Shown piece by piece: positions 2,741 to 63,476 of a stretch of DNA of 64,000 bases. The translations under genes were made by a program, and so were the position numbers. The notes beneath the pieces were generated by a model that saw nothing but the letters and a program-made list of their open reading frames with translations, searched no databases and was not told where the DNA came from. Origin of the DNA: Candidatus Latescibacterota bacterium (GTDB lineage Bacteria; Latescibacterota; UBA2968; GCA-2709665); assembly GCA_963662665.2 (NCBI GenBank), contig CAXXJS010000061.1:32001-96000 (forward strand). The letters run 5' to 3'. Every line of letters begins with the position of its first letter. Within the stretch, counting starts at the first letter, position 1.

Positions 2741-3397
2741 ATGCTGAAAGCCATTCTTTGGGACAACGACGGCGTCCTGGTCGACACCGAAGGCCTGTAT
2801 TTCCAGGCCTGCCGCGAAACCCTTGAACCCCTCGGCGTCCGCCTGAGCGAAGCCCGTTTTATCGAGTCCTTCCTCAAGGCCAGCGATGGTCTTACCAGGA
2901 TCGCCGCCGAACACGGCATTGACGAACAGGCGCTGGAGTCCGCCCGCATCTGGCGCAACGCCCGCTATACCGAACGCTTGCGCGCCGGCGTACCCGTCAT
3001 CGACGGCGCTCGCCAGGTGCTGCGCCAACTTCACGGCACCGTGCGCATGGGCATCGTCACCAGTTCGCGGCGGGAGCACTTTGAGATCATCCACGCCGCC
3101 ACCGGCCTGCTGGACTGCATCGATTTCACGCTTGTGCGCGAAGACTACCGGCATTCCAAGCCGGACCCCGAGCCCTACCTCACGGCCATGCGGCAAAACG
3201 GCCTTAGCGCCGCCGAATGCGTCGTTATTGAAGACTCGGACCGGGGGCTGCGCGCCGCACTGGCGGCCGGGCTGCGCTGCATCGTCATACCGCAGGGCCT
3301 GACGCGCGGCCTGGACTTCACCGGCGCCACGCGGCAACTGACCGATATCCGTCAGGTCCCACCGCTGATCCATGAACTGATGCAAACTCAACCCTGA
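2741..3397 (+). CDS. HAD family phosphatase (HAD-IA)
   Basis: WDNDGVLVDTE motif I, SKPDPEPY, VIEDS motif. Confidence 0.92.
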   Translation: MLKAILWDNDGVLVDTEGLYFQACRETLEPLGVRLSEARFIESFLKASDGLTRIAAEHGIDEQALESARIWRNARYTERLRAGVPVIDGARQVLRQLHGTVRMGIVTSSRREHFEIIHAATGLLDCIDFTLVREDYRHSKPDPEPYLTAMRQNGLSAAECVVIEDSDRGLRAALAAGLRCIVIPQGLTRGLDFTGATRQLTDIRQVPPLIHELMQTQP

Positions 3398-3582
3398 TTT
3401 ATCATTTTTCGGGGACGTTAATTCGCATATACGCAAGTGTATAAGGGCGATTTGAAGTCGGATTTCTAGGAACCTTCAGGTCGCTGGACGTGAACGGAAA
3501 AAATGTCCATTTCAATGACCGACTCGACCCAATTTGGAAAGACTTTTCGCGGCACCGCGTTGTTGCTTTTGTGTAATTAAGC
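3392..3582 (+). mobile_element. MITE copy 1 (191 bp, diverged)
   Basis: Homologous to five other copies; flanked by a perfect TCAA duplication (3388-3391/3583-3586); supplies the TGA stop of the HAD gene. Confidence 0.8.
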
Positions 3583-3601
3583 TCAATGCCGGGAGAAACC
3601 A

Positions 3602-6852: not shown

Positions 6853-6909
6853 TAATAACACTGATTTCTTGTTTGATGCACGGCTCCTTTGGGGTCATCA
6901 CGGTTATGC
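6853..6909 (+). other. attC-like site (R' GTTATGC at 6903)
   Basis: TAATAAC...GTTATGC; 6903-6922 is 19/20 complementary to 7950-7969. Confidence 0.65.
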
Positions 6910-6924
6910 GAAAGTGAGTTCGGC

Positions 6925-7968
6925 GTGTTTAGAGCGGATCTCTTCCAGGCGCACCTGGAAAACTGGGAACTCATTCTGCAGGAGCGAACCGTTGAAGCCA
7001 TCGAACGGATCGCGTCTGTTCCTGGCGTTGGGGGTGTGATTCTTGGGGGTAGCATTGGGCGAGGAATGGCGTGGCCCATATCAGATATAGACCTCATCTA
7101 CATTACTACCAGGGCGGCGGACAACAGTCTTCCAAAGGCAGTGGACGAACTTGCGTTGTCCATCACAAGGGAGTGGGCTCGGGACACGTGGCCGACGTCT
7201 GTTGACGCAGGCCGACTCCATTTTACAGCCGATGAGGCGGACGACTTGATCAATGGCAAGCGTCACTTGGACAAGCTGATGGCCAATGAGAGGATTTTCC
7301 ATGCGACCGACAAAAGCCACCTCGGTCAATCAGTTCACGCGTCTGAGGATTGCGATACTCCTGCATTTGTTGCGCTACTTTCCGATGGTCGATTTGACCC
7401 ATCGGTTGTCCGGGCACGCCAAATCGAGCGAGTCAGACGTGTAACAAGGCTCGCCCATCGAGTGAAGTCACATCTGCAGGCAGGTCGTCTGAATGCAGCA
7501 GGGATCTCTATACAGGAACTCGCGCGTGTTATAATCCCATATCTGAAGGAAAGTTGGGGGCATGGAGATCGGTCCTTTGGGAGGGTTTTCACTCGCTTTT
7601 GCGTTCTGGCTCAGGAGCACCTGGAAGAAGGAATTGCGAATCGTCTCATTCGTCTGTTCTCTCTTACGGCGGATGAGGTAGAAGCACGGTACGCGAAGGC
7701 TCCAGCTAATGTTGTGGAGCGGCACATCACATCGTATCCATCCCGCCTGGCCGCGGGCGAGGAGGTCACGGAGCTCGATGACAAACGCGATGTCCTGTAT
7801 GCCTATACGTGGTATGCAGTTCGTTCTGGTGAAACTGGTTCGTGGCTCCTCAATGAGGACCTGCACAAGTCTCAACTCAAGTTGTCATTGGATCAAACAG
7901 CATCCATATGGGCCGAGGTGGTCTCGAAGGAGCCGGATTGCGTATCCAGCGAACTCACCTTCGCATAA
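6925..7968 (+). CDS. nucleotidyltransferase (Pol-beta/KNTase-like) domain protein, gene cassette
   Basis: ILGGSIGRG...SDIDL motif; stop codon lies inside the R'' box GCATAAC. Confidence 0.8.
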   Translation: MFRADLFQAHLENWELILQERTVEAIERIASVPGVGGVILGGSIGRGMAWPISDIDLIYITTRAADNSLPKAVDELALSITREWARDTWPTSVDAGRLHFTADEADDLINGKRHLDKLMANERIFHATDKSHLGQSVHASEDCDTPAFVALLSDGRFDPSVVRARQIERVRRVTRLAHRVKSHLQAGRLNAAGISIQELARVIIPYLKESWGHGDRSFGRVFTRFCVLAQEHLEEGIANRLIRLFSLTADEVEARYAKAPANVVERHITSYPSRLAAGEEVTELDDKRDVLYAYTWYAVRSGETGSWLLNEDLHKSQLKLSLDQTASIWAEVVSKEPDCVSSELTFA

Positions 7969-8099
7969 CACGAGCACCCACGGCTCCAGCCATCCGACCT
8001 CCGCCCAACCTGGCTTCGCCGCCCTTCTGGCGCCCCGGCCCCTGGCAACCGGCTTCGCAGGTTCGCAAATCGTGAGACCTTGGCGGACGTCGTTTAGGC
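7963..8099 (+). other. attC-like site (long)
   Basis: GCATAAC...TTTAGGC; contains GCAACCGGCTTCGCAGGTTCGCAAATCGTGA, shared with the attC at 61209. Confidence 0.7.
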
Positions 8100-8115
8100 G
8101 CAGAATGCGAACTGT

Positions 8116-8724
8116 ATGACGACGCCAGAGATTCCCTTCAGCCATTGGCAACCGTTGTCAGTCCGGGAATTGACGCAATTGTTCGCTGGCGCCCCTTTCC
8201 TGTGGGGACTCGCGGGTGGCTATGCGGTTGAACAGTTCGCGGGAAGGCGCGTCCGAGACCACGATGATATTGACGTTATCGTGTTCCGGGATCAACAACT
8301 CGACGTACAGCGATGGCTCTCAAATTGGCATCTTTACGCGGCAGATCCAGCTGGCTCATTGCGACCATGGGCGGAATCAGAGTACTTGCCTTACGGGATA
8401 TTTGACATATGGGGCCATACCGGCGTACGGGTATGGCAGCTTCAGATTATGTTAACTGAAAGCGAACGCGACAGGTGGTTCAGCAAGCGCAGCAGACTGA
8501 TAGGCGGGCAACGAGAAGATTTGATCGTTGCATATAGAGGTGTTCCCTGCATTCGGATTGAGGTTCAATTGCTTTACAAAGCAAAGAATCCTCGTTCGAA
8601 AGATGACCTGGACCTTGAAACGTGCCTGCCGCTGATGTCCGCCGAGGCAAAGAGATGGTTGGGGACCGGGTTGGAAGTTCTGTATCCTGAAGGTCATCGC
8701 TGGCAAAGTCTTCTGTCGAAATAG
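8116..8724 (+). CDS. nucleotidyltransferase, AadB/LinA-like (aminoglycoside-2''-adenylyltransferase domain)
   Basis: GLAGGYAVE..GR..RDHDDIDV motif; QLLYKAK..R.KD..D C-terminal motif. Confidence 0.8.
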   Translation: MTTPEIPFSHWQPLSVRELTQLFAGAPFLWGLAGGYAVEQFAGRRVRDHDDIDVIVFRDQQLDVQRWLSNWHLYAADPAGSLRPWAESEYLPYGIFDIWGHTGVRVWQLQIMLTESERDRWFSKRSRLIGGQREDLIVAYRGVPCIRIEVQLLYKAKNPRSKDDLDLETCLPLMSAEAKRWLGTGLEVLYPEGHRWQSLLSK

Positions 8725-8757
8725 TGGTCTGTATAGTCAGGCACGACCGAGATGCGC

Positions 8758-8844
8758 GCCAAAAGTACGTTTTGTGCAAAGGCGTATACGCTCCTTGGCC
8801 TATAATAATTCCTTCGGCGGTTCGGTAAGCGGCAGATGTTATGT
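8758..8844 (+). other. attC-like site (family B, degenerate R'')
   Basis: GCCAAAA...GTTATGT; interior TTTTG.GC...GGCGTATACGC.CCTTGG like 61209-61298. Confidence 0.65.
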
Positions 8845-8903
8845 GCAGTTGCAGTCCCGGAGCGACGCCTCCCTGCGCCCTGACCCAAATCCTGGGAATC
8901 CTG

Positions 8904-9677
8904 ATGCCCCGCCCTGATCTCAAAACCACTTTCAATACCGTTGCCTCGCTCTACGACGAAGTGAGGCCCGGATACCCTGATAAGCTTGTCAGGGATGTCC
9001 TGGATTTCTCAGGTATCGATAAAAGCGGGAAAATCCTGGAAGTAGGATGTGGAACCGGACAGGCTTCAAGATTATTCGCCGCCCACGGATGCGAGATGAC
9101 CTGTCTGGATATTGGCCCAGATCTGATCGAGGTCGCGAAGGTCCGACTCAACCACTACAGGAACGTTCGCTTCACCCTGTGTCCTTTCGAAGATTGGGAC
9201 TCGGCTTGCAAGTTTGACCTTGTAATCTCCGCGACTGCATTCCGCTGGGTGAGTCCGGGAGTCAGATTCATTAAAGCCCGTGACACCCTGAAGGCCAGGG
9301 GATCATTGGCTATCTTCTCCAACCAACACGTGAGAAAACTCGAGGGTTTCTTTGCGGAAGTCCAGGAAGTATACAACAAGCATTATGTCGTGTCAGATTC
9401 CCCTCGGGATCCCGGTACTCCGACGACATCAGAGTCACCGGAACCCGGAACTTCCGCTTTTGCCGATCCTATCCACCGAGTGTACGCGTGGACAGCGAGC
9501 TATTCAGCGGAACAGTACATCAAACTCATTGGCACCTATTCCGACCACGTCGCGCTGCCCGAATTCAATCGCACGCACCTTTTTGATGGTATCGCTGACC
9601 TCATAAACAAGAACTACGGAGGATCGATCACCAAGTACTACGAAACTGCTTTAGCATTTCGCAGAAAGAAAGCGTGA
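8904..9677 (+). CDS. class I SAM-dependent methyltransferase, gene cassette
   Basis: ILEVGCGTGQAS motif I; RPGYP; FDLVISATAF. Confidence 0.92.
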   Translation: MPRPDLKTTFNTVASLYDEVRPGYPDKLVRDVLDFSGIDKSGKILEVGCGTGQASRLFAAHGCEMTCLDIGPDLIEVAKVRLNHYRNVRFTLCPFEDWDSACKFDLVISATAFRWVSPGVRFIKARDTLKARGSLAIFSNQHVRKLEGFFAEVQEVYNKHYVVSDSPRDPGTPTTSESPEPGTSAFADPIHRVYAWTASYSAEQYIKLIGTYSDHVALPEFNRTHLFDGIADLINKNYGGSITKYYETALAFRRKKA

Positions 9678-9703
9678 TTGAAGTTTAAAGTATCAACCCG
9701 GTT

Positions 9704-9730
9704 CCGGCCTTGCCGTGCGTGCAAGGCCGG
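9704..9730. terminator. GC-rich hairpin (possible terminator)
   Basis: CCGGCCTTGC-7nt-GCAAGGCCGG perfect 10-bp stem after the stop; no clear U tract. Confidence 0.4.
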
Positions 9731-9753
9731 CGATTGACCGGGACTGCAACAAC

Positions 9754-9841
9754 ACGAAATACGACGGTCTGCGGCTCCGGTACGATTGCGCCTCCAATCC
9801 AACTCGCCTACGTCAAGCTCCAGCCCGATCGTACATTATCG
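9754..9841 (+). other. degenerate attC-like site
   Basis: Both ends defined by long complementarity to neighbouring cassette ends (9738-9760 vs 8838-8860; 9836-9853 vs 10837-10854). Confidence 0.65.
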
Positions 9842-9872
9842 GAAATAGACTCATTCGAGGGAGTCTCCAACG

Positions 9873-10640
9873 TTGAGCGAAGACGTCAGACGATTTTACG
9901 ATGCCCTGGCAGCCGATTACCATCACGTTTACGCAGACTGGGAATCGGCAATCAAACGGCAGTCGTGTGTACTGGATCGGTTGATTCAATGTGAATCGTC
10001 AGTAGATGCATCGCTTGTCCTGGACTGTACATGTGGAATAGGCACCCAGGCAATTGGCCTGGCGCGGCGAGGATACGAAGTCTTCGCGTCCGATCTTAGC
10101 CCGAAGGCGATTGCCAGGGCGAAATCAGAAGCAGATAACCGGGGACTGAAGATTGATTTCGCCGTTGCCGATGTTCGTGAGGTGGAATGTGCCTTCTCCC
10201 ACACATTTGACGTCGCGATCAGTTGTGATAACTCTCTACCGCATCTTTTGACTGACGAAGACTTGACTCTCGCTCTCCGAAGCATTCGGCGCACACTTGC
10301 CGGTAATGGACTGTTTATTGCCAGTATTCGCGATTACGATCGGCTGCTTGCGGAAAGACCGTCGTTTATGGGTGGGAACGTCCAGGGTGTACCGGAGCGC
10401 GAGGTCATAACGTTTCAGATCTGGGACTGGTCGAAGGAATCAGATACCTATTTGATTCGGCTCTTCATAATGAACCAGAAACCGGGTGGATGGCAAGTAC
10501 GGGAGGTCAGGACTCGCTACCGGGCAATTCGGCGCAAAGAGCTCACTCTGGCTCTGGAGTCAGCCGGGTTTGCGAAAATTGCCTGGCATACACCTGAGCA
10601 GTTGGGTTATTTTCAACCCGTTGTGACGGCGCGTGCTTAA
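9873..10640 (+). CDS. class I SAM-dependent methyltransferase (glycine/sarcosine N-methyltransferase-like), gene cassette
   Basis: VLDCTCGIGTQA; DNSLPHL; TTG start with GAGGGAG RBS. Confidence 0.9.
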   Translation: MSEDVRRFYDALAADYHHVYADWESAIKRQSCVLDRLIQCESSVDASLVLDCTCGIGTQAIGLARRGYEVFASDLSPKAIARAKSEADNRGLKIDFAVADVREVECAFSHTFDVAISCDNSLPHLLTDEDLTLALRSIRRTLAGNGLFIASIRDYDRLLAERPSFMGGNVQGVPEREVITFQIWDWSKESDTYLIRLFIMNQKPGGWQVREVRTRYRAIRRKELTLALESAGFAKIAWHTPEQLGYFQPVVTARA

Positions 10641-10831
10641 CCTTGATTGGTTGTTTTTCCGGGACGTAAAATCGAATTTAGGCAAGTGGATAAAGGCGAT
10701 TTGACTTCTGGTTACCGGGATACACCAGGTTACTGGACGTGAACTGAAAACACGTCCTTTTTGACGACCGTTACGCCGCGTTTCATGGGTTTTCGTCGCG
10801 TCGCCGCGTTGCTGTTTTTTTCGGACTGGGG
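10641..10831 (+). mobile_element. MITE copy 2 (191 bp)
   Basis: CCTTGATT...GACTGGGG, flanks TTAA/TTTA; sits between a stop codon and an attC. Confidence 0.88.
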
Positions 10832-10848
10832 TTTATTGAGTCTGCTTC

Positions 10849-10939
10849 CGATAACAGCACGTTTTGCGCTGCGGCGCTGATCGCGCCCTGGCCTACGGCA
10901 ACCGCTTCGCAGTTCGCGCACGGCGGCAAGACGTTAGAT
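10849..10939 (+). other. attC site (family B)
   Basis: CGATAAC...GTTAGAT, TTTTGCGCTGCGGCG...GCAACCGCTTCGCAGTTCGCGCA. Confidence 0.85.
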
Positions 10940-16035: not shown

Positions 16036-16302
16036 ATGTCAAATTCCGGGGCCTATGGCCGATGGTTCAAGAAACAGCTGGAACCTCACCTGTGGTCGGA
16101 GATCGAGGCGACTTTTGCTCGAGCAGACCTGGAAGAGAACTGGAAGGCTATGTTCAAGACAGCCGAAGTATTCGGGCGAATGGCTACCGAAGTTGGGGCT
16201 CATCTGGGCTTTGCCTATCCTCTTGAGCTTGATCGGAATGTCACCGAGTATCTTTTGGAGATTGCAAAGATAAGTGAGAATCCGGTCCGCGATACCCGCT
16301 GA
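16036..16302 (+). pseudogene. C-terminal fragment of aminoglycoside 6-adenylyltransferase (AadK/AadE-like)
   Basis: GRWFKK.L....W..IEATF....EENWKA.F.....F...A.EV...LGF.YP..LD..V..Y; N-terminal NTase domain missing. Confidence 0.7.
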
Positions 16303-16377
16303 CACGTCCGCGCCCGGCTTAGGACCTAGCCCTTCGTCGAGGCGTTGCGCGGTTCGGGCGCGCCGGGAATGTTAGAG
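16297..16377 (+). other. attC site (family A)
   Basis: CGCTGAC(stop)ACGTCCGCGCCCGG...TTCGGGCGCGCCGGGAAT-GTTAGAG. Confidence 0.75.
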
Positions 16378-19459: not shown

Positions 19460-19541
19460 CTATAATACCGTGCCCCTGGCTCCGGGCCATACGGCCCTTC
19501 GCCCAACCGCTTTGCGGTTCAGGGGCACGAAGACGTTACAC
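19460..19541 (+). other. attC site (family A-like)
   Basis: CTATAAT-ACCGTGCCCCTG...CAGGGGCACG-AAGAC-GTTACAC with clearly paired L arms. Confidence 0.8.
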
Positions 19542-21630: not shown

Positions 21631-21668
21631 GGCACCGGGTTCACGGAGTTTCCGCGACCGATTGCAGT

Positions 21669-21749
21669 GGGTAAATTCTGCGCCGCCTTCAGGCGGCTTG
21701 GGTTTCGCCAACCGGCTAAGCCGGTTCATTAATCCACAAAACGTTACCT
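21669..21749 (+). other. attC-like site (family B, degenerate)
   Basis: TTCTGCGCCGCC...CGCCAACCGGCTAAGCCGGTTC...AAAAC-GTTACCT. Confidence 0.6.
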
Positions 21750-21987
21750 GCAATGCGCCGCTACGGCCGGTGCCGGGCCGGGAAAACCAATGGAATCCCG
21801 CTATCCCAGATCCAGAGACGAAACGGGCCCACTGCCTGATCAGTCAGAGATTACGGAACTCTGCAAGCGATTCTGGGATCTGGAAGTAAACCGCGTCCGC
21901 AGGGCGAATTCGCGGTGCGTCTTCTTTTGCGACAGTTTGCGGAACCGGATCAAACACCTTCAGCCCTGTTTCACACCTGTTCTCCTT

Positions 21988-22012
21988 GTAGGGGCGTCCC
22001 TTGTAGGCACCC
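21988..22012 (+). repeat. GTAG-type REP
   Basis: GTAGGGGCGTCCCTTGTAGGCACCC; copies at 34082 and 43686. Confidence 0.7.
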
Positions 22013-22107
22013 GGCTTCGGGGGTCGTGGTGATGTCTTGTAGCTGTTTGCGGCGCGGGGGCACGTCATTTTCGCGCATCGAGTATTGACCTGTTGCAGGG
22101 GGAATCG

Positions 22108-27964: not shown

Positions 27965-28125
27965 CACCATGGCGGCTGCGGGCTTTTCGGTTCTTCGCAC
28001 AACCGATACGGCGGCATATACTCATAGGTTCCGAGAAAGTCACGCTTCACTTTCATTCCGACAATTCATCACCTCAGGTTTTGAATGACTGCTCCAAAAC
28101 CTCACTTTCGGTCTTCAGGCATTGA

Positions 28126-28314
28126 CCTTGATTCGTAGTTCTTCGGGGAAGTAAAACTGAATATATGCAAGTAGAAAAAGGCGATTGACTTCTGATTACC
28201 AGGATACACCAGGTCACTGGACGTGAACTCAAATAATGTCCTTCTTGACGACCGTTACGCCCCGTTTCACGGATTTTCGTCGCGTTGCCGAGTTGCTGTT
28301 TTTTCGGATTGGGG
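28126..28314 (+). mobile_element. MITE copy 3 (189 bp)
   Basis: CCTTGATTCG...GGATTGGGG, flanks TTGA/TTAA. Confidence 0.88.
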
Positions 28315-28355
28315 TTAATTGCCTGCGGCGATTTACTATTTTTCGAGTCCGCGTC

Positions 28356-28468
28356 ATTTAACTGCAGGGTCTGTGCCGCGGCGCGGAGCCTGTCCTGAGT
28401 TCACCGAACGGGCGCCCTGGCCTCCTGCAAATCGCTTTGCGAGTCCAGAAACCGGAATAACTTTAGAC
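28356..28468 (+). other. attC-like site (family B) with a REP-like insert
   Basis: ATTTAAC...TTTAGAC aligns with 10849-10939 except for extra CCTGTCCTGAGTTCACCGAACGG. Confidence 0.6.
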
Positions 28469-29143: not shown

Positions 29144-29878
29144 ATGTACGTTACAAAGGAAGGAATACGCTTGAACAGCCAGAACGATGTTCCCGGAATG
29201 GCGCTGATACCGGCAGGAGAATTTTTGATGGGCGCCGTGAATAACGATGATATGGGTTACACCGGAGCCTTCCTTGAAGAGAATCCCCAGCACCAAGTCA
29301 ATCTGGAAGCATACGCTATCGATACCCATCTGGTTTCGGTAGAGCAGTATCACGGATTCATGCAGGCGGCAGACTATCGCCCTGAGACCTGGCAGGACAA
29401 CTGGCTGGATGCACCCATTCAGCCTGTCAGGAGTATTTCATTGCCGGATGTTCTCCAATATTGTGATTGGGCGGGAAAGAGGCTGCCCACCGAGGCGGAA
29501 TGGGAGAAGGCGGCCAGAGGAGGCCTGGTCAACCAGCTGTTTCCGTGGGGTGACGATGCCTTTGATGGATCGCAGGCGGCAGATCGCAAGATAGAAGAAG
29601 GCCCTCCGGACGTCGGTACGTTCCCACCAAACGGGTTCGGACTCTACGACATGGTTGGCTCCTTGTGGCAATGGTGCAGAGATGACAGGCGACTCTATAC
29701 CAATGACCGCAGACATTGTCCCATAGGGCCCCTGGGAGGTGAAACGCGGTCGGCACGGGGAGGCGACTGGTATACCAGCCCGTTTCATAAGCGATGCTCC
29801 AGGCGGGGGGGCGTGCGCTTGAGAGGCGGGTCGGGAAATCTGGGATTCCGTTGTGTCCGGGACGAAATCAATGCCTGA
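29144..29878 (+). CDS. formylglycine-generating enzyme (SUMF1/EgtB/PvdO) family
   Basis: IPAGEFLMG; KRLPTEAEWEKAARGG; PNGFGLYDMVG; GFRC. Confidence 0.93.
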   Translation: MYVTKEGIRLNSQNDVPGMALIPAGEFLMGAVNNDDMGYTGAFLEENPQHQVNLEAYAIDTHLVSVEQYHGFMQAADYRPETWQDNWLDAPIQPVRSISLPDVLQYCDWAGKRLPTEAEWEKAARGGLVNQLFPWGDDAFDGSQAADRKIEEGPPDVGTFPPNGFGLYDMVGSLWQWCRDDRRLYTNDRRHCPIGPLGGETRSARGGDWYTSPFHKRCSRRGGVRLRGGSGNLGFRCVRDEINA

Positions 29879-30069
29879 CCTTGATTCGACATTTTTCCGG
29901 GACGTTAAATCGAGTATAGGTAAGTGGATAAAGGTGATTTAACGGCTGATTACCAGGATACACCAGGTCACTGGACGCAAACTGAAAAAATGTCCTTTTT
30001 GACGACCGTTGCGCCCCGTTTCAGGGGTTTTCGTCGCGTCGTCGAGTTGCTGTTTTTTTCGGATTGGGG
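29879..30069 (+). mobile_element. MITE copy 4 (191 bp)
   Basis: CCTTGATTCG...GGATTGGGG, flanks CTGA/TTAA; abuts a stop codon. Confidence 0.88.
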
Positions 30070-30123
30070 TTAACTCTGACGGGTCCACTCCACAACCGCC
30101 GTTCATGCGAGGAGAGTTTAGAG

Positions 30124-33580: not shown

Positions 33581-34081
33581 GCAAGAGGGAAGCCTGACTG
33601 TCTTACAGGTTGCATGTAAACCAGGGGCGTCCATCCCAAACTACCGACCTGCGCCAGATCCTCGGAACATCCAGGACGTTGTGTGTAATTCCAGGCAGAC
33701 ACACAAAATGAGGACGTGGCGCGTTCCGCTCCAACGCGAGAAGCCAAGTTTCAAATCTCGTCGAGGCTGACCGTTAGAAAGTCGAATTCAGTCTGGCAAT
33801 CCGTGAATAATTCGACGCGCGGGATCTCGCGAATTTCGCAGTCGCGTGGCTGGAAAAACATCTCGGTTAACCGCGGTCTAGCCGCACACAGCGGTCAACA
33901 GCGGGGGCGCCCACAGCCGCCGCCAATTTCCGCGGATTGACGGGACTGCCGATTGCTTGCAACTGGTGGAATGAGGTTCCCTAGGTACGTTATAGGCGAT
34001 GGTCCGGCTACCGTACCGCAAACTGCCAGTTTGCGGTACCGGATCAAGCACATGCGGCCCTGACCGACTCATCGTCGAATT

Positions 34082-34106
34082 GTAGGGGCGCCCCTTGTGG
34101 GCGCCC
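34082..34106 (+). repeat. GTAG-type REP
   Basis: GTAGGGGCGCCCCTTGTGGGCGCCC. Confidence 0.75.
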
Positions 34107-34221
34107 GGAAAACGACACTGACGTGAATATGTGCGTTCACATCTCGTTATAAAACAGTTATTAACAATCAATTAGTAAAGCAGAGTCAACCCAAACGAAG
34201 TACTATCAGGAGAGGTGATCA

Positions 34222-34757: not shown

Positions 34758-34877
34758 CCCCCCACCGCATCAGCCGTCGCCGGTTCCTTCGACAGGCTCA
34801 GGGCAGCGCCTTCGACCCTTCGACAAGCTCAGGGACCGGCTCGGCTTCTGCGACTCCCCCTCAAGGGGGGAGTAATT
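34758..34877 (+). repeat. palindromic REP-like element with tandem CTTCGACA.GCTCAGG units
   Basis: CCCCCCACCGCATCAGCCG...ACTCCCCCTCAAGGGGGGAGT; three copies in the window. Confidence 0.75.
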
Positions 34878-40367: not shown

Positions 40368-40399
40368 GTGCTATTTCACGTCGGACTGCAATCGCAAAC

Positions 40400-40485
40400 A
40401 TCCCGTTCGTTTCTCCCGTGTGGGTCGTTCGGGGCCGCATAGCAGATCCCTGACCCCTGCTTCGGGCACGCCGAGGACGTTAGCA
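40400..40485 (+). other. degenerate attC-like site (left end approximate)
   Basis: TTCGGGCACGCCGAGGAC-GTTAGCA right arm matches family A. Confidence 0.5.
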
Positions 40486-43633: not shown

Positions 43634-43685
43634 CGTCACGCTCGGCGATCAAGCGCCCGAATTTCGTTACGGCTCTCCGTCGGCT

Positions 43686-43708
43686 GTAGGGGCGTCCCTT
43701 GTGGGCAC
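43686..43708 (+). repeat. GTAG-type REP
   Basis: GTAGGGGCGTCCCTTGTGGGCAC, right after a short attC remnant CTCTAAC...GTTACGG (43628-43672). Confidence 0.65.
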
Positions 43709-43780
43709 ATGCCTCCGATGCCAGTGGGATCTTCGTAGGGTCTTGCCGGCGCCAGAAACGTCATTCGAATGGAGCGAACG

Positions 43781-48848: not shown

Positions 48849-50823
48849 GTGCGCCGTGAAAAGGCGCGGAACTTCAGTGGGTGAGAGTCCCACCCGACAG
48901 ATGTTGCCACAGTCGGAAGCAATCGGAGCGGAGACGCAGGTAACGACATCTCCGAAGCCTCCGGTGTAGAGGGTCGCCAGGCGACCCGGCGAGTATGTGG
49001 GCTGAAACGTGAGTAAACGCTGCGCAGGCCTCGAAAAAGGTAATGCGGGAGCCGACCCGGCTTTTGGACGGGGAAGGCCGCCGTCGTTGGGGAAGCAGGC
49101 AACGAGCGCACCCAACGGTCCCGCCGGGGTAATGGCGGAGGCACGCATACAAGGAGTTCCGACGCAACACGGGAAGCCCCAGCGGTGGGGGTGACACCAA
49201 CCGGCAGCCCGCGAGGGCCAGGCCGGGCCGCATGGGGTGGCGGAGAGGCCCGTAGTACCTGAGAAGCCGGGTAATGCCGGTGGAGGAAAGGGGCCTTGGT
49301 TCAAGGGCAACGTCAAAGGAGCGAGAGCCGGGAGATTGGTATGAGCCTAAGACCTCCGGACAAGGTTCGGAAGCTGCGGATGACGTTGCATGCCAAAGCG
49401 AAGGAATCGCCCGATTACCGATTCTACGCGCTATATGACAAAGTGTATCGCGAGGACATCCTGAACTATGCTTACCGCTGCTGCAAGGCCAACGGCGGCG
49501 CGGCGGGCGTGGACGGGGAGACTTTCGAGGACATCGAGACATATGGACGAGACCGGTGGTTAGGCGAACTGTCGGAAGCCGTAAGAAGCAAATCGTATCG
49601 GACCTCTCCGATTCGTCGGGTATATATCCCGAAGCCGAACGGGAAGCAACGGCCGCTGGGTATCCCGACGATCAGGGACCGTGCGGTGCAAACGGCGGCG
49701 GTGCTGGTCCTGGAGCCGATCATTGAAGCGGACCTGCCAGCAGGGCAGTATGCGTACCGTCCGAAGCGGAGCGCGCACGACGCCGTCAAGGCGGTTCACA
49801 GTCTGGTGAACCGAGGCCACACACAGGTGATCGACGCCGACTTGAGCGGCTACTTCGACACGATCCCGCACGCCGAGTTGATGAAATCGGTGGCGCGCCG
49901 CATCTCGGACGGGCGGATACTGCGTCTGATCAAGATGTGGCTGACCGCGCCGGTGGAAGAAACCGACAAGCGGGGCCGGAAACGTCGGACGACGCCGAAC
50001 AAGGACCAGGGAAGAGGGGTGCCGCAAGGCGCGCCCATCTCCCCGTTGCTGGCGAACCTGTATATGCGTCGGTTCATCCTGGGCTGGCGACTTCTGGGAC
50101 ATCAGCAACGTCTGAAGGCTCATATTGTCAACTACGCTGACGATTTTGTGATCTGCTGTCGCGGGTCTGCAAAAGAAGCGATGCGCGTGATGCGATGCAT
50201 GATGAAAGCGCTCAAGTTGACGGTCAACGAGCAGAAGACGAGCGTATGCACGCTTCCGGAAGGACGATTTGACTTCCTGGGTTACACCATCGGACGCTGT
50301 TACTCGCCAAAGACGGGCAAGGCCTACATCGGCACGCGTCCGTCAAAGAAGGCGATCCGGCACATCTGCCGGGCCATCAGCGAGGCCACGGCGCGACGGT
50401 GGTTGCTGAAAGACCATCAAGAACGGATTGCCCACCTGAACCGAAAACTGGCAGGCTGGGGCAACTACTTCCGTCTTGGACCGGTCAGCAAAGCCTACCG
50501 GAGTGTGGACAGCCACACCCGGCAACGGCTCCGATGGTGGTTGTGCAACAAGCACCGGATACCGGGAAAGGGAACGTCACGGTTCCCTGACGAGGTCCTC
50601 TACGATACGTTGGGCCTGACCCGGCTGGAAGCGCAGACGCGCAACTTTCCGTGGGCGAACGCATGACGCCTTGTCCGAGAGCCGGATGCGGTAACTCCGC
50701 ACGTCCGGTTCGACGAGCGGGACGTGGAAACGGGGCACGGAGGGGCTATTGAGGCACCGCCAGACGAAAGGGGCGGAAACAGATAGGCCACTCCTAAACC
50801 ACCGCGCCACATCTCGACTCTAC
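48849..50823 (+). mobile_element. group II intron (complete, not class IIC)
   Basis: 5' GTGCG; domain V GAGCCGGATGCGGTAACTCCGCACGTCCGGTTC (AGC triad); 3' ...CGACTCTAC; RT ORF inside. Confidence 0.95.
49341..50666 (+). CDS. ltrA: group II intron reverse transcriptase/maturase, no endonuclease domain
   Basis: GAAGVDG, RPLGIPT..DR, GVPQGAPISPLLAN, YADD, FDFLG, GWGNYF. Confidence 0.96.
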   Translation: MSLRPPDKVRKLRMTLHAKAKESPDYRFYALYDKVYREDILNYAYRCCKANGGAAGVDGETFEDIETYGRDRWLGELSEAVRSKSYRTSPIRRVYIPKPNGKQRPLGIPTIRDRAVQTAAVLVLEPIIEADLPAGQYAYRPKRSAHDAVKAVHSLVNRGHTQVIDADLSGYFDTIPHAELMKSVARRISDGRILRLIKMWLTAPVEETDKRGRKRRTTPNKDQGRGVPQGAPISPLLANLYMRRFILGWRLLGHQQRLKAHIVNYADDFVICCRGSAKEAMRVMRCMMKALKLTVNEQKTSVCTLPEGRFDFLGYTIGRCYSPKTGKAYIGTRPSKKAIRHICRAISEATARRWLLKDHQERIAHLNRKLAGWGNYFRLGPVSKAYRSVDSHTRQRLRWWLCNKHRIPGKGTSRFPDEVLYDTLGLTRLEAQTRNFPWANA

Positions 50824-51086
50824 TTCTTCGGGGAAGTAAAACCGAATAAATGCAAGTAGATAACGGCGATTTAACTTCTGATTACCAGGATACACCAGGT
50901 CACCGGACGTGAACTGAAAGAATGTCCTTTTTTACGACCGTTTCACCCCGTTTCAGGGCTTTTCGTCTCGTTGCCGAGTTGCTGTTTTTTTCGAATTGGG
51001 GTTAAGACCTGTCCAACGCCTCTTTACTGACATCCTGTCCGGGGCGAGCGCACTTGAAAAGCAATACCTGAAGAGAGGTCCTGCCT

Positions 51087-54929: not shown

Positions 54930-55035
54930 CCTTCGACGAACTCATGGCAGCGCCTGCGAACCTTCGAACGGCTCAGGCACTGCAGACTCAGGGATCGGCT
55001 CGGCTTCTGCGAGTCCCGCTCAAGGGGAGAGTGAT
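54930..55035 (+). repeat. palindromic REP-like element (third, diverged copy)
   Basis: CGGCTCGGCTTCTGCGA.TCCC.CTCAAGGGG shared with 34758-34877. Confidence 0.7.
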
Positions 55036-56766: not shown

Positions 56767-58107
56767 ATGTTTCGAATACAAATGAAAATCGCGCCGATGT
56801 TGCTTGCAGTATTGATACCATGCTCTTGGGCTTCAGCCGACGAATGGCCGCAATGGCGCGGACCGGAGAGGGACGGCGTATGGCGTGAAACCGGGATTAT
56901 CGAAAAGTTCGACGGGCCGGACATCCCGATCCGCTGGCGAGTGCCCATCGGCAGCGGCTACAGCGGCCCGAGTGTCGTGGGCGGGCGCGTCTACATTACT
57001 GACAGGCTTGCGAAACCGAAACAGGTTGAACGGGTCCAATGTTTCGCATGGGAAACGGGCGAACTGATCTGGTCCTACACGTACGATTGCGAGTACCGAA
57101 TCGGCTACGTTGCGGGTCCCCGCGCGACGGTTACCGTGCATAACGGCCTCGCTTACGCCCTCGGGGCGACGGGACATCTCCACTGCTTCGATGCGGCGAC
57201 GGGCGAACTGAAGTGGAATAGAGACCTGAACGCTGAATACAATATTGCGATGCCAACGTGGGGTATCGCTAGCGCGCCCATCGTTGAAGGCTCGAACGTG
57301 GTCGTCCAGATTGGCGGAACGCCCGGAGCGTGTATCGTCGCTTTCGACAGAGAAACGGGAGCCGAGAAATGGAAGGCCCTTGATGACAAAGCATCTTACT
57401 CCGCCCCGATTGTGATTACGCAGGGCAATGCGCGCGTCCTGGTCTCTCGGACAGCCGAGAGCATCGTCGGTCTCAACCCGAAGACGGGCGGTGTGTACTG
57501 GCGCCATCCCTTTCCGCCGAATCGCATGGAGATCGGAATCGCATCCCCCGTCCTCTATCGTAACGAGTTGTTTTTCACAGACTTCTTTGATGGGTCCTTG
57601 CTACTTAAACTGAATCCAAGAAAGCCGGAGATGCAATTCGGGTGGCACCGTAAGGGAGAGAGTGAAAGAAACACGGATGCGCTGCATTCAACGATGTCGA
57701 CTCCGGTCCGACTTGGAGATTATATCTACGGCGTGGACAGTTACGGGGAACTCCGCTGTCTGGATGCCCGCAACGGCGATCGGATCTGGGAAGACCTCAC
57801 CGCGGTTCCCAAAGCCCGCTGGAGCAATATCCATTTTATCAGAAACGGCGACAGGGTCTGGATGTTCAACGAGCGGGGTGAACTGCTGATCACCACGCTT
57901 TCGCCGGACGGGCTGAACATCATCAGTCGCGCGAAACTGATCGAGCCCACACGCGACCAGTTGAACCGCAGAGGTGGCGTCACGTGGGCGCATCCCGGTT
58001 TCGCCTATAAACACGTGTTCGTGCGAAATGACGAGGAACTGGTCTGCGCCAGTCTGGCGCAAAGCGAGGATAAGGATGACCGGGAATCTTCCGGAAACGA
58101 ACCTTGA
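56767..58107 (+). CDS. secreted PQQ-binding-like beta-propeller protein
   Basis: Signal peptide, DEWPQWRGP.RDG, repeated D..TG...W, TWAHP. Confidence 0.92.
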   Translation: MFRIQMKIAPMLLAVLIPCSWASADEWPQWRGPERDGVWRETGIIEKFDGPDIPIRWRVPIGSGYSGPSVVGGRVYITDRLAKPKQVERVQCFAWETGELIWSYTYDCEYRIGYVAGPRATVTVHNGLAYALGATGHLHCFDAATGELKWNRDLNAEYNIAMPTWGIASAPIVEGSNVVVQIGGTPGACIVAFDRETGAEKWKALDDKASYSAPIVITQGNARVLVSRTAESIVGLNPKTGGVYWRHPFPPNRMEIGIASPVLYRNELFFTDFFDGSLLLKLNPRKPEMQFGWHRKGESERNTDALHSTMSTPVRLGDYIYGVDSYGELRCLDARNGDRIWEDLTAVPKARWSNIHFIRNGDRVWMFNERGELLITTLSPDGLNIISRAKLIEPTRDQLNRRGGVTWAHPGFAYKHVFVRNDEELVCASLAQSEDKDDRESSGNEP

Positions 58108-58291
58108 TACATTATTCTTCCGGGACGTAAAATCGAATATAGGCAAGTGGATAAAGGCGATTTGACGGCTGCCTACCAGGATACACCAGGTCACTGGACG
58201 CGAACTGAAAAAACGTCCTTTTTGCCGACCGTTGCGCTCCGTTTCAGGGGTTTTCGTCGCGTTGCCGAGTTGCTGTTTTTTCGAATTGGGA
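58102..58291 (+). mobile_element. MITE copy 6 (190 bp)
   Basis: Perfect CGAA duplication (58098-58101/58292-58295); provides the TGA stop of the upstream gene. Confidence 0.9.
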
Positions 58292-58299
58292 CGAAGATC

Positions 58300-58342
58300 T
58301 GATTCGTATTGCCGTATCTGTTCGCAAATGCCGTAGTTAGAT
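58300..58342 (+). other. right arm of an attC (R' GTTAGAT at 58336)
   Basis: GTTCGCAAATGCCGTA-GTTAGATGAAATGAA; 14/15 complementary to 61201-61215. Confidence 0.7.
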
Positions 58343-58419
58343 GAAATGAAAAAAATAAAGATCTACACAGATAAATTGCCAGAAGAACACCATTCTATGA
58401 ACGAACAGGTTTATGGGTT

Positions 58420-59082
58420 ATGTATGAACTTCTAGCGAAGAATATAACCGCCGTATTCGCCCTTGGAGGAGTTTTGTTGGGCTCAATGTTCACCTTCTTT
58501 GCAAATTCAAGATTAAAAGAGAAGGAGTTGCAACTTCGGCTACGGGAAAAGGTGCTGGATCGGCGAATCGAAGCCCATGAGGCAATTTTTAAGCTGGTTG
58601 CTCCAATGAGACATATGAGGTCGTTGGAGTATCAGGAGTCTGAATCAGAACTTGCCCGAACGCCACAGTTCTTCATGAGTCCTGAGGAATTTTACTCTTG
58701 GCATATTCAGCATTTAGAAGTGGCTGCGACCTATTCTGCGTGGCTAACAAAGCCTGTAAGCCGTGAACTCAATTTTATACAAGACTATACGCTAAACCTA
58801 TCTATGCTTATCGGGCCAGCCCCTGCCAATCTATTTCCTGAGATTGGTCGTATCATTCGGTCAGACTTTATCGATATGGCGCACCAACTAGAGAAAATTG
58901 CATTCGATTTTTTTGAGAAGGACCTAAGTAAGATGACATTTGGTGATCCTGACGAGCATCATAAATATAAAAAAGATGAAACGTTAGAAAGGTTAAACTT
59001 AACCAAACTATATCAAGAATGGGCTACAATAGCCGAAATGATCCAGTCGAATACAGAGTCTTCTATCCTGACCTATTCATGA
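58420..59082 (+). CDS. AT-rich hypothetical protein with an N-terminal TM helix (cassette ORF 1)
   Basis: ORF; last codons replaced by IS1380 (pre-insertion end ...ESSITK*). Confidence 0.75.
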   Translation: MYELLAKNITAVFALGGVLLGSMFTFFANSRLKEKELQLRLREKVLDRRIEAHEAIFKLVAPMRHMRSLEYQESESELARTPQFFMSPEEFYSWHIQHLEVAATYSAWLTKPVSRELNFIQDYTLNLSMLIGPAPANLFPEIGRIIRSDFIDMAHQLEKIAFDFFEKDLSKMTFGDPDEHHKYKKDETLERLNLTKLYQEWATIAEMIQSNTESSILTYS

Positions 59083-60764
59083 ATCGTCAGGGATTGCAGA
59101 TTCGTGCAGCAGAAGCAGCTTTCGAGTGAGTCTAAGAACGCAGGAGAAAGCTGGCTGTGCGGAACTGGCGTTTTCAAGCGATTTCAGGGTGTATTTTTGT
59201 AGCAGGGTTGCGTGGAGGCGTCAGGATGACCTTGTTGTGACTGCCAAGAGCACAGACTTCTCCATGGCTTTTGGTGGTAGCAATCAAGACGTGAAGGCGG
59301 CCTGTTCCAGATGGAAACGTTATGGCATGGCGGTTCCCAGATTGTAGAGCATGGTTCGATAGAGGTGTTTGAGTGGAAACGCCGTTGGCAGATGGAACGT
59401 GATTTTGGTTTTCAGTTCACAAACGCGCCCGGCGACTTTCAAGATGCGGTTTTGCAGCGTATTAAACTGGGCGTTCGTCCACGTGGTGCCGCGCAACCCG
59501 ATATGGGCCAGGGCGTGCACCAACACATAGGCGGCGCTGTGGAGAAAGAGCCGGAAGTGATTGGCGTGGAAGGTGTGGCAAGAGGTGCGATCGGAATGCA
59601 GAAAGGTCTTGTGATTCTTGATGAAGTTTTCCATCCTGCCGCGTGAGCAATAAGCGGTTTTGTAGATGAATGACGGTTGTGCGCCGTTCAGGTTGGTGAC
59701 CACGAATCGGATATTGTGACCTTGCGGGGTGACTTCTGCCTTGCAGATGATGCGGCGTGGGGAAGACCAGCTGCCGGCCTGATAGTCCCAACAGCGATAC
59801 AGGCGCACAGGTTTTCCCCCATCGGCATACAGCGCTTTGGCCTGGTCCATCAAGGGCTGTGCCAACCGCAGCAGCACCGCGTTTCCGCCTTGTCCGAGGA
59901 TAAAAAACACATCGTTTTCGTCACACATCGTGTGCACTTCCGGACACGAAAAGTGTGAATCGCCACGCAACAGGATCTTGACATCGGGCCATGCTTTACG
60001 CAGGTAGGCGATCACCCGTTTGAGAATCGACACGATCTCTTTGCCCGTGGGTCGGCGGCCCGGACGCAAGACCGTCGTGATCAACTTGCCGGTTTGCCCT
60101 TCATAGATATGCAGGGGTTGGTAGCAATAGCCCTTGAAATACGCATTGAATAACGACAACTGCTGGGATCCATACACCTTGTCTTCCGTGTCATCGATAT
60201 CCAACAGAATGGCTTCAGGGGGGTGCTTATACGAGGCGATAAACGCATCGGCAAAGGCCTTCGCGATACGATATAAGTCACCTCTGGTGATCCGGTTCTC
60301 GAACCGACTCATCGTGGGTTGACTGGCCAGGTTGGCACCGGTGACCGGCAACCGATCGCAGGCCGCCTTGAAGCCGGGGTCACTACGCAACGCATTGCAG
60401 TCGTTCGCATCCTCATACCCACACGCCATCTGAAAGACACGCTGAGTCAGCAGGTCCACCGACGGGTGATCCACGTAACTTGGATGCCGACGATCTGTTA
60501 TCGCCTCGACGATCCGACACAAAATGCCGATTCTGGATTCCACCTCGCGAAGCAGCATCGCCCCGGTGTCGCTGGTCAGCATGCCCCCGTCGAAGGTGGC
60601 TTCTACCCGTTTGCCAGAAACACTTGCGAAAGACATCCTTTGTTGTTTATCTTGACCTGCCACGGTAGTTTCCTCCCGGTTCATTGTTATCAGGTTATTC
60701 TCGTAACCATAATATAATACAATGACTTGGGTAAGGAAACTACCTTTTTTGTGAATTATTCAGA
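59067..60764 (-). mobile_element. IS1380-family insertion sequence
   Basis: Imperfect IRs CCTGACCTATTCA / TCTGAATAATTCA; CTAT duplication (59063-59066, 60765-60768). Confidence 0.9.
59320..60684 (-). CDS. IS1380-family DDE transposase
   Basis: FDGG.LTSD.G; GYED.ND...LR.DP; ASQPT.SRFEN; LDID; LRGDS.F; Y..RG.MEN.IK. Confidence 0.95.
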   Translation of the reverse strand: MNREETTVAGQDKQQRMSFASVSGKRVEATFDGGMLTSDTGAMLLREVESRIGILCRIVEAITDRRHPSYVDHPSVDLLTQRVFQMACGYEDANDCNALRSDPGFKAACDRLPVTGANLASQPTMSRFENRITRGDLYRIAKAFADAFIASYKHPPEAILLDIDDTEDKVYGSQQLSLFNAYFKGYCYQPLHIYEGQTGKLITTVLRPGRRPTGKEIVSILKRVIAYLRKAWPDVKILLRGDSHFSCPEVHTMCDENDVFFILGQGGNAVLLRLAQPLMDQAKALYADGGKPVRLYRCWDYQAGSWSSPRRIICKAEVTPQGHNIRFVVTNLNGAQPSFIYKTAYCSRGRMENFIKNHKTFLHSDRTSCHTFHANHFRLFLHSAAYVLVHALAHIGLRGTTWTNAQFNTLQNRILKVAGRVCELKTKITFHLPTAFPLKHLYRTMLYNLGTAMP

Positions 60765-60808
60765 CTATAACCAAATAATGGCAATTCCGTAAATATGGAG
60801 AAAATACA

Positions 60809-61174
60809 ATGAATTATGAATGGGAACGAGCATCAGAAAGAGGCCAAAAAGGAGTCGGATATGTGGAGGTATACAACACCACTGCTAAAGGCCATCGCAT
60901 TAGTGCTGTAATCAGCTTTCTCCCTCAAATAACAGGCCGTTCCAATCAGAGGCAAGTTAATGTATGTCTGTTTTTTGAAGGTAAAAAAGTGGAATTAACC
61001 GATGGCTTTTTTCACTGGATATATGACGATATTGGAGATATCGTTCAGGAGCAAGAAAGTGAATATTTCAATAGTGACTCTGAAGCGTTGGAGTATATGG
61101 TAACTCAAACTCTGATAGTAGACAGAATGCCTCAACTTGATTTGGTATCAAATGGTGATTACGCAATAGGCTAA
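60809..61174 (+). CDS. AT-rich hypothetical protein (cassette ORF 2)
   Basis: GGAG RBS, 121 aa, same cassette as 58420. Confidence 0.65.
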   Translation: MNYEWERASERGQKGVGYVEVYNTTAKGHRISAVISFLPQITGRSNQRQVNVCLFFEGKKVELTDGFFHWIYDDIGDIVQEQESEYFNSDSEALEYMVTQTLIVDRMPQLDLVSNGDYAIG

Positions 61175-61208
61175 TAATTTTGTGATATAAGGATGAAGAC
61201 TTCACTTC

Positions 61209-61298
61209 ATCTAACACAGCATTTTGCGCTGCGGCGTATACGCGCCTTGGGCTACGCCAACCCGCTGCGCGGGTTCGCAAATCGTGAAACCGTTATAT
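61209..61298 (+). other. attC site (family B, intact)
   Basis: ATCTAAC...ATTTTGCG...TTCGCAAAT...GTTATAT. Confidence 0.9.
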
Positions 61299-61820
61299 GT
61301 CATGCCAGAATCTTCTTGAGTCTAGAATTCAATGCGACTAGTACTCGTCCGCCACGGACAAGGCAAAGACCAGCTGACCGAGACGAACTCCGGTGAGCGC
61401 ACTTGCTCAGGTCTCACGGACTTGGGCAGGGAGCAAGTTTACGCGCTCGCGACACATCTTCGAGAGTCAGGTGAATTCTCCGATTGTCAGACGTTACTCA
61501 GCAGCACTATTGCGCGAGCGCGGCAGACCGCCAAGGTATTGTTGGATGTCTTGCCGGCACAATGCGTAACCGAGGATCCAGATCTATGTGAGCTGCGAAT
61601 GGGCCAAGCCGAGGGTCTCACCACCTCCGAGATCCAGACAAAGTATGGCGACGCAACGCCTCCGGGCGCGGAAACTTTCCAAGAATTGTTTGACAGAGCA
61701 CATTCAACGTTGTTGTCCTACTCGCGGCGATTCAACGGGCAGACAGTAATGGCAGTGACACATGGCGGATTCATCGTCGGGTCAACGATTAGGCTTCTTT
61801 CAGGCCCCGAGACCAAAGTC

Positions 61821-63246: not shown

Positions 63247-63394
63247 CCAAAGTCTGGCTACATCCTTTGAATACAGGCATTACTGAATGGTCTCTGTCTG
63301 ACGGGACCTGGACTCTTGTCCAATACAACAATGCTTACCATTTGCATCGACTGAACGAGAGCAGTTGATCCTCGGTGGGAGGGGAAGGCACGAC

Positions 63395-63476
63395 ATATAA
63401 CACGTCCGTGCCCGGCTTCGGGCATACGCCCGACGCGCAACCGCTTCGCGGTTCTGGCACGGCGAAAACGTTATGT
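63395..63476 (+). other. attC site (family A, intact)
   Basis: ATATAAC-ACGT-CCGTGCC...GGCACGG-CGAAAAC-GTTATGT. Confidence 0.92.

Follow-up and report, generated by a model that had tools for sequence, protein, structure and literature searches.

Own-start/own-end pairing with a conserved odd pair at position 11 in the cassettes of an integron-type array of Candidatus Latescibacterota

Contig C61 (CAXXJS010000061.1) of a Candidatus Latescibacterota bacterium (source genome G000, GCA_963662665.2) carries an integron-type cassette array of ~86 kb, located roughly at 12.2-98.6 kb, in which the start of a cassette can pair with the end of the same cassette over more than the length of the core boxes. 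The window, by which we mean the whole stretch of 64,000 nucleotides analysed here (C61:32001-96000), is part of this array, and coordinates without a prefix are window positions. In 116 unique cassettes from nine related genomes, the own-start/own-end pairing extended to position 16-17 counted from the crossover G. Position 11 was non-complementary in ~95% of these cassettes; the two bases found there were the same each time, and the longest stems (20 or more bp) were no exception. At positions 5-7, 9 and 13-16 the bases vary widely yet pair. We consider it probable that this is an integron-type array whose sites form a long helix in the circle form of the cassette, and that this helix, with its odd position 11, is kept by selection on the folded bottom strand.

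Complementarity between cassette starts and ends on the contig

Four units with one open reading frame (ORF) each follow one another on the + strand at 6.9-10.9 kb of the window, and their products resemble a nucleotidyltransferase (without a Pfam match), an aminoglycoside adenylyltransferase and two methyltransferases. The spacers between these units measure 80-140 nt, begin with ...TAAC and finish with GTTA.... Iterated nhmmer, seeded with four such spacers and run on the whole genome, revealed ~20 homologous attC-like sites of 79-152 nt, all of them on the + strand of C61 between C61:14,969 and C61:98,613. The alignment of these sites set the R'' C and the R' G for every site.

The original prediction had described five start/end pairs as complementary, and all five were present as described (match counts include the G:C pair unless given as after the G). 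In cassette 6904-7969, the start arm at 6903-6922, consisting of the R' core GTTATGC and a 13-nt extension, forms the right arm of the circle-form stem, and it is complementary in 19 of 20 positions (18/19 after the G) to the end arm at 7950-7969, which consists of a 13-nt extension and R'' GCATAAC; the mismatch is located at position 11 (A against G of the reverse complement). The claim that the terminal codons ELTFA plus stop of this cassette mirror its 5' leader held, since the end arm takes in the five final codons and the stop codon TAA of ORF 6889-7968 (AGC GAA CTC ACC TTC GCA TAA, ending at 7968). The arms of cassette 8839-9835, at 8838-8860 and 9738-9760, agreed in 19 of 23 columns with two gaps, the outer 13 being identical; its R'' ends in AAT, its own R' starts with ATT, and the left-half profile gave E = 0.18 for its end arm. 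In cassette 9836-10933, the arms at 9835-9853 and 10837-10855 matched at 16 of 18 positions after the first base, which is A and not G. The ends still match in the two cassettes that bear insertion sequence (IS) transposase genes, 58337-61292 (DDE_Tnp_1_4) and 61293-63470 (Mutator family). Their arms, 58336-58350 with 61201-61215 and 61292-61306 with 63387-63401, are complementary in 14 of 15 positions each (13/14 after the G), and in both of them the mismatch falls at position 11. Along the contig, position 11 was mismatched in 8 of 13 aligned pairs, the start having A where G would be needed. That the single mismatch is nearly always at position 11 (start A, partner C) is a detail absent from the original prediction.

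Comparison with shuffled pairings was carried out on 19 sites set by sequence profile alone, which gave 18 neighbouring start/end pairs whose ends were permuted 20,000 times. The summed score of the neighbouring pairs was 194, against 112±12 for permuted pairs, and none of the 20,000 permutations scored as high. Reciprocal best partners were found in 7 of the 18 neighbouring pairs. Prior knowledge of the junctions matters for these comparisons: a blind scan that accepted all TT.../...AA inverted pairs up to 6 kb apart returned 36 matches with a score of at least 11 on each strand, which equals chance, so that such matches are uninformative when junctions are not set beforehand. An energy-based search of the contig for AAC...GTT hairpins gave 128 matches over all 270 kb, missed known sites and did not separate them from background; sequence profiles were used for site calling in its place.

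The pairing in related genomes

A sequence-only model derived from 16 sites of the source genome was searched in 61 related genomes, and the site family was present in 45 of them. By taxon, 13 of 14 genomes in the same genus carried it, as did 20 of 21 in the same family and 21 of 31 in a second family of the order; among 8 further genomes of the class, it was found in 3. There were up to 62 site matches per genome, arranged in arrays. Judged from these matches, the putative attC family is common to the whole bacterial class.

For the analysis of pairing, sites were called in 20 stretches from nine relatives using two position matrices built from the source genome sites. This resulted in 188 sites, of which 187 were on the array strand and one on the other. 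Of 123 neighbouring pairs less than 1.5 kb apart, 104 had scores that reached or exceeded the 95th percentile set by 3,231 non-neighbouring pairs; the same level was reached by 13 of 33 pairs at 1.5-3 kb and by 1 of 19 beyond 3 kb.

The position profile was obtained from the 116 cassettes unselected by score, comparing cognate with non-cognate complementarity. Positions 5-7 were complementary in a fraction of 0.83-0.85 of cognate pairs vs 0.29-0.32 of non-cognate pairs, position 9 in 0.82 vs 0.37, and position 10 in 0.59 vs 0.33. Complementarity fell at position 11 to 0.04 for cognate and 0.03 for non-cognate pairs, and it resumed at positions 12-16, with cognate values of 0.84, 0.75, 0.73, 0.65 and 0.62 vs non-cognate values of 0.49, 0.35, 0.38, 0.27 and 0.28. 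At position 17 the values were 0.45 and 0.26, and background level was reached from about position 19. Extensions thus match their own cassette better than non-cognate ones at positions 12-16 (62-84% vs 27-49%). Matrices without any flank columns gave the same profile on 121 pairs, with A at position 11 in 104 of them and a partner that would need G in 100. In the 111 pairs scoring at least 12, the number of matched bp, including G:C, had a median of 15, an interquartile range of 13-18 and a maximum of 24.

The non-complementary bases at position 11 are A against C on the top strand, and 91 of the 116 cassettes have T·G there on the bottom strand; a wobble on the top strand was never observed at this position. 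In addition, position 10 showed 14 bottom-strand wobbles vs one on the top strand.

The original prediction had also held the extensions to be cassette-specific. The cognate excess bears this out in part; on the other hand, cassette starts follow the family consensus GTTAnnnGAAATgcc, and non-cognate scores reach up to 19. Since the starts carry this consensus, the extensions are not fully cassette-specific.

Anatomy, folding and coding content of the stem

The ends of the sites carry inverted core boxes, RYYYAAC...GTTRRRY, with TTA at positions 2-4 in at least 93% and R'' ending in TAAC. Folding was performed with DNA parameters. Folds of single sequences show an L helix, a one-sided 4-nt spacer and one bulged base; RNAalifold, run on 20 aligned sites, yielded no consensus structure. 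The site interior is palindromic as well, and a branched structure with two small hairpins is predicted for it. The proposed lengthening of the attC stem in the excised circle was borne out by these predictions: in the five window cases, continuous outer helices of 14-19 bp were predicted in the circle form, and in relatives the bottom strand of the circle form was predicted to be 7.5 kcal/mol more stable than the array form, being the more stable of the two in 103 of 116 cassettes. The bottom strand was also predicted to be more stable than the top strand in 101 of 116.

The longest ORF was on the array strand in 109 of the 116 cassettes (relatives, loci L027-L046). Its stop codon was a TAA inside R'' in 10 of these 109 and otherwise lay at least 16 nt upstream of the R'' C; none of the 109 ORFs ended between -15 and -2 of the R'' C. 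Because ORF stops avoid the interval from -15 to -2, the stem appears as a discrete module that is non-coding in about nine of ten cassettes. Cassette 6904-7969, whose ORF reads through the stem, belongs to the minority type. An ATG occurs at positions 11-13 in 51 of 116 cassettes. Its use as a start codon was considered and rejected, as it opens a long ORF in only six of the 116, and for the same reason a start codon does not explain the conserved A at position 11.

These data locate the crossover between the G and TT, because the change from T to A at position 2 is mirrored in the cassette's own R'' in three pairs, AAT and ATT are compensated in one site, and positions 5-7 are cognate. The bases after the G therefore travel with the downstream cassette, so the full helix can form only in the excised circle, where the cassette's own start meets its own end, which makes the match cognate. 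This helix comprises ~10 bp beside the crossover, then position 11, which is conserved but not a Watson-Crick pair (A in the cassette start and C before R'', T·G on the bottom strand), and a clamp of 4-6 or more bp. Selection would keep the arms complementary, the folded bottom strand of the excised circle being the presumed insertion substrate. In the array, each site would pair with the start of its neighbour and only the family consensus would pair, so that folding, and hence excision, would be weaker. It is therefore reasonable to suppose that the longer circle stem would favour reintegration over excision, as originally suggested. The odd pair at position 11 could show where the recombinase arm ends on the outer side, or could work as a hinge, and it might also contribute to a bottom-strand bias.

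Recombinase genes at array heads

An ORF of 98 aa at C61:11799-12095, ~20 kb to the left of the window, encodes the C-terminal catalytic part of a tyrosine recombinase and directly precedes the first junction-like GTTAGCAG (C61:12223). This GTTAGCAG, considered as a possible attI site of the array, is located 128 nt past the truncated recombinase gene, and the 14 nt that follow it match the R'' flank of the first site in 13 of 14 positions. No gene of the source genome reached the TIGR02249 cut-off, the best match having 87.6 bits and covering model positions 242-315 only. Searched against genome contigs, the 98-aa fragment returned only generic recombinases from many phyla; it is near-identical to the C-terminus of an intact protein from a genome of the same genus.

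This intact type is a short recombinase of ~260-330 aa found at array heads of relatives (loci L127, L145, L146, L156, L160, L162 and L163). TIGR02249 is its best family, matched in two pieces (1-178 and 234-315) with 240.9 bits vs a cut-off of 265. Its best solved structure is 2a3v (IntI4), and it has 20 residues where the 2a3v chain has 62; in an alignment with two canonical IntIs from the same class, it is without 41 residues at the integron-specific additional domain. The catalytic motif RHSFATHLL...LLGH...Y is conserved in the short recombinases (R..HxxR..Y pattern). In a tree of 20 rows (one row with stop codons dropped, midpoint root, small outgroup), the short proteins grouped with the canonical IntIs (support of 88/87 and 100/99, respectively) against the genomes' own Xer-like proteins (100/100).

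Same-strand sites followed the short gene within 10 kb in 12 of 16 loci examined, the first one at 0.9-6 kb, and the same pattern was found at one of six control loci holding the genomes' ordinary Xer-like genes. Furthermore, the site family is present in 12 of the 13 genomes that encode the short protein. Canonical IntI genes, above the TIGR02249 cut-off, were present in six of the 61 genomes, two of which hold the family. Of three such genes examined, two had no family site within ±20 kb and the third had one site ~19 kb away. No canonical IntI was found in complete or near-complete genomes with 43-62 sites (G007, G013, G015, G016, G020, G057 and G058). Only fragments of the short recombinase remain in G015, G007 and the source genome. 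From position alone, we infer that the short protein moves these cassettes. The short gene was also found in six copies in G020 and in three copies in G017 (L156 and L160 being among these loci), with identical match scores and lengths within each genome, and two of the three copies in G017 are directly downstream of a canonical or partial intI; the gene may itself be part of a mobile unit.

More tentatively, these arrays could represent a sister system to classical integrons, in which an IntI-like clade that never had, or lost early, the I2/additional domain would capture and shuffle cassettes via attC-like hairpins, with the 16-17-bp helix and its odd position 11 replacing part of I2 recognition.

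Comparison with known integrons

Like class 1 attC (59-base element), the sites have core boxes ...TAAC and GTTA..., they form arrays on one strand in which most cassettes hold a single ORF, and their R'' is complementary to the cassette's own start and not to the adjacent R', with a match exceeding 7 bp. Loot et al. 2017 note that, within an array, R'' is not required to match the four variable bp of R'. The original prediction took canonical pairing to be ~7 bp, which is too low: according to Bouvier et al. 2009 (PMC2727003), self-pairing in most cassettes continues past the 7-nt boxes and covers 9-11 consecutive complementary nt in all, and in a control set of 14 cassettes taken from six plasmid-borne class 1 integrons, cognate complementarity was 7-12 bp including G:C and never more. 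Automatic end assignment was doubtful in three of the 14 control cassettes (dfrA25, aac(6')-IIc, and aadA1 in L148), for two of which inspection by eye gave 8 bp (dfrA25) and 7 bp (aac(6')-IIc). Pairing as long as that described here was therefore not seen in this known cassette set. Unlike class 1 attC, the sites here resume pairing after position 11 and reach positions 16-17, with the median of 15 and maximum of 24 matched bp given above, and they have a conserved A/C at position 11 and a branched interior with two small hairpins; moreover, no canonical integrase was found beside the arrays. Given the published 9-11 nt and the 7-12 bp of the control, the stems here are a longer, structured variant. 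The cognate relation and a modest extension were already established, and the new part is the pairing resumed past position 11 to positions 16-17 with a fixed odd pair. The proposal of an undescribed attC class holds to the extent that the sites form a family found throughout the lineage, with an anatomy of its own and an adjoining non-canonical recombinase; at the same time, the stem is a variant of the known cognate extension. A literature search, which did not extend to supplementary site alignments, turned up no description of such a stem, which is not proof of absence, and it returned no paper that combines integron and attC with names beginning with Latescibacter.

Sedentary chromosomal integrons with species-specific attC families, such as the Vibrio repeats, and the 'inverted integrase' group are similar in their long arrays, homogeneous site families and cassettes of unknown function. 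They differ in carrying IntI with the additional domain, and their stem length is here taken from the 9-11 nt statement only. An integron-finding program would probably file the array as a CALIN (a cluster of attC sites without integron integrase; Cury 2016), because the source genome has no TIGR02249 match above cut-off. In contrast to a CALIN, a truncated IntI-like gene heads the array here, and intact genes of this type head many-site arrays in relatives. In the part of Cury 2016 concerned with such genes, recombinases without the IntI domain stood beside fewer than three sites only and were judged 'not IntI'.

A hairpin folded from single-stranded DNA is the substrate of Xer recombinases, which have no integron-specific domain, in the CTX phage. 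This system is comparable in using a tyrosine recombinase that is devoid of that domain, and it differs in being a phage that integrates at dif and not a cassette array.

Alternative explanations and points against a selected helix

The arms might be terminal inverted repeats that act as double-stranded binding sites of an Xer-like recombinase, with no single-strand folding. The recombinase at the array heads does lack the domain with which canonical integrases act on a folded attC, and both arms contain conserved bases, as such an explanation would have it. Binding, however, needs conservation and not the cassette-by-cassette covariation observed at variable positions; recombination between inverted double-stranded sites should flip the segment, whereas the orientation is uniform in 109 of 116 cassettes, and the site interior is palindromic too. 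We regard this explanation as unlikely.

The original prediction saw in the complementarity a possible footprint of cassette genesis, one end having been templated from the other by fold-back synthesis or RT-type copying. In the second case a folded RNA would have been reverse transcribed, and in both the match would be historical and not selected. The complementarity is indeed cassette-specific at variable positions, a group II intron with a reverse-transcriptase/maturase gene is present in the array at 48875-50666, and the passages of Loot 2017 and Cury 2016 on the subject describe the origin of cassettes as unresolved. Copying alone, however, predicts perfect complements of arbitrary sequence and length, and this is not what was found: position 11 is non-complementary in nearly all cassettes and shows the same bases each time, stems of 20 or more bp included, pairing decays gradually and fades by positions 18-19, both arms follow the family consensus, and ORF stops avoid the stem. 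Covariation, the conserved non-pair, the gradual decay and the avoidance by stop codons argue for selection on structure and not for copying, which we consider quite improbable.

The position of the arms, in the 5' leader and just past, or over, the stop codon, would also suit a role at the RNA level, in which the 5' leader of the transcript would pair with its 3' end and affect message stability or translation control. In the sense strand, however, A against C leaves position 11 unpaired, the wobble being present on the antisense strand only, and the few long ORFs opened by the ATG at positions 11-13 (6/116) do not point to translation control either; such a role is very unlikely. The explanation that nothing is special, the ordinary 7-bp relation being combined with chance and family conservation, can draw on the chance level of score 11 in the blind scan and on the high non-cognate scores produced by the family consensus, and is hardly tenable in view of the permutation test (0/20,000), the 104 of 123 close pairs at or above the 95th percentile of non-neighbouring pairs, the surplus of cognate pairing at positions 12-16, seen with both the 116 and the 121 pairs, and class 1 controls that never exceed 12 bp.

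A helix selected on the folded bottom strand is thus the explanation that we retain, and several observations weigh against it. On the contig itself, the extension was seen in just 7 of the 18 neighbouring pairs. The statement that the start of each cassette is complementary to its end therefore stands for neighbouring pairs as a set, which are far above chance, and not for the remaining 11 pairs, which have no extension, nor for 13 orphan cassette starts, for which no clear partner was found within 9 kb except for 40479, with a candidate end at 42829. The 11 pairs mostly span gaps of 2-33 kb, which probably contain sites of other kinds; the site ending at 6903, for example, is outside the attC-like family. 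In addition, sites of the relatives were called with matrices derived from the source genome, and related genomes are non-independent samples. The length comparison was made with the class 1 control only, and long stems could be commoner in chromosomal integrons with a canonical integrase. All energies are predicted values. No bottom-strand wobble excess was found outside positions 10-11 (75 vs 65, not significant), so the strand argument rests on one or two positions.

Finally, the array looks decayed: 7 of 24 R' triplets are not GTT and 5 of 21 R'' triplets are not AAC, the sites that lost these triplets including those at 9758-9760 and 9835-9837, 8079, 28462, 348-350, 16301-16303 and 19464-19466, and the recombinase at its head is truncated. 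The loss of GTT/AAC triplets at several sites and the broken recombinase gene suggest that the array has ceased to move.

Other features of the array

The attC-like sites of the cassettes described above are all on the + strand. That of cassette 6904-7969 is located at 7963-8085 and has a degenerate R' (C at 8079, where the family has G). The site of cassette 8080-8838, at 8757-8844, has an R'' ending in AAA, and the cognate match of this cassette to its start (8080-8085) is merely 6 nt. The site at 9754-9841 is degenerate and compensated, with AAT...ATT instead of AAC...GTT, and those at 10849-10939, 61209-61298 and 63395-63476 are family members. Further + strand members of the family lie at 344-426 and 16297-16377, where R'' ends in GAC, and at 19460-19541, where it ends in AAT. 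The R'' position is ambiguous in the attC-like site at 21662-21749, T replaces the family G at 28462 in the site at 28356-28468, and the site at 40393-40485 is weak; the start that follows the latter, at 40479, has the candidate partner ending at 42829 already mentioned (15/17).

Insertions in the array comprise two IS elements, one group II intron and several copies of a 205-nt repeat that occurs genome-wide. The IS transposase genes, both on the - strand, are at 59320-60684 (DDE_Tnp_1_4) and 61858-63183 (Mutator family). The group II intron at 48875-50666 matched domains 1-4 of RF02003 with 90 bits, and its reverse-transcriptase/maturase ORF occupies 49296-50666. The repeat of ~205 nt, which includes a terminator-like hairpin, was found at 3385-3600, 10634-10850, 28118-28335, 29872-30090, 50804-51020 and 58095-58310; with ~75 copies on more than 25 contigs and on both strands (nhmmer), it is not array-specific. 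A search of Rfam gave no match for the attC-like sites or for the 205-nt repeat. Other repeated non-coding stretches are 21933-22014 and 34027-34108 (82 nt, 77% identity), 34786-34876 and 54930-55035 (~90 nt, 80-90%), and 43685-43717, with the common motif TGTAGGGGCG.CCCTTGT.GGC.

Parts of the window were also present in sequencing runs labelled sponge metagenome. In a contig of run X1, position 8753 is joined to 9839 via 935 other letters that replace 8754-9838, and therefore cassette 8839-9835 and the preceding site are replaced in another sample. The right end of this replacement is at most 3 nt from the predicted junction, and its left end coincides with the start of the preceding site and not with the predicted junction. 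The X1 contig thus gives a weak hint of what may be cassette-by-cassette turnover. Contigs of four runs showed mosaic joins at sites, many of them attributable to similarity between sites, and parts of the stretch that these contigs leave uncovered are uninformative.

Implications

The finding by itself leaves the making of cassettes unexplained. Pairing that is restricted to the circle, at twice the usual length and with a fixed mismatch, would offer a natural handle on the role of the circle-form helix in insertion vs excision, and the same handle bears on how far the recombinase reads the DNA and on strand choice. The enzyme that uses the stem is a more interesting question than the stem itself, and the larger one, given 40-60 sites per complete genome, no canonical integrase and a domain-less IntI-like gene at array heads. 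This gene would be a concrete candidate for a stage between Xer recombinases and integron integrases. In Escudero 2016 and in a 2020 paper in eLife, the passages on the step from Xer to integron integrase tie it to the gain of the additional domain. If a sister system of the kind proposed above were real, recombination of folded single-stranded sites would need no I2 domain, the domain whose gain is regarded as the innovation that founded integrons.

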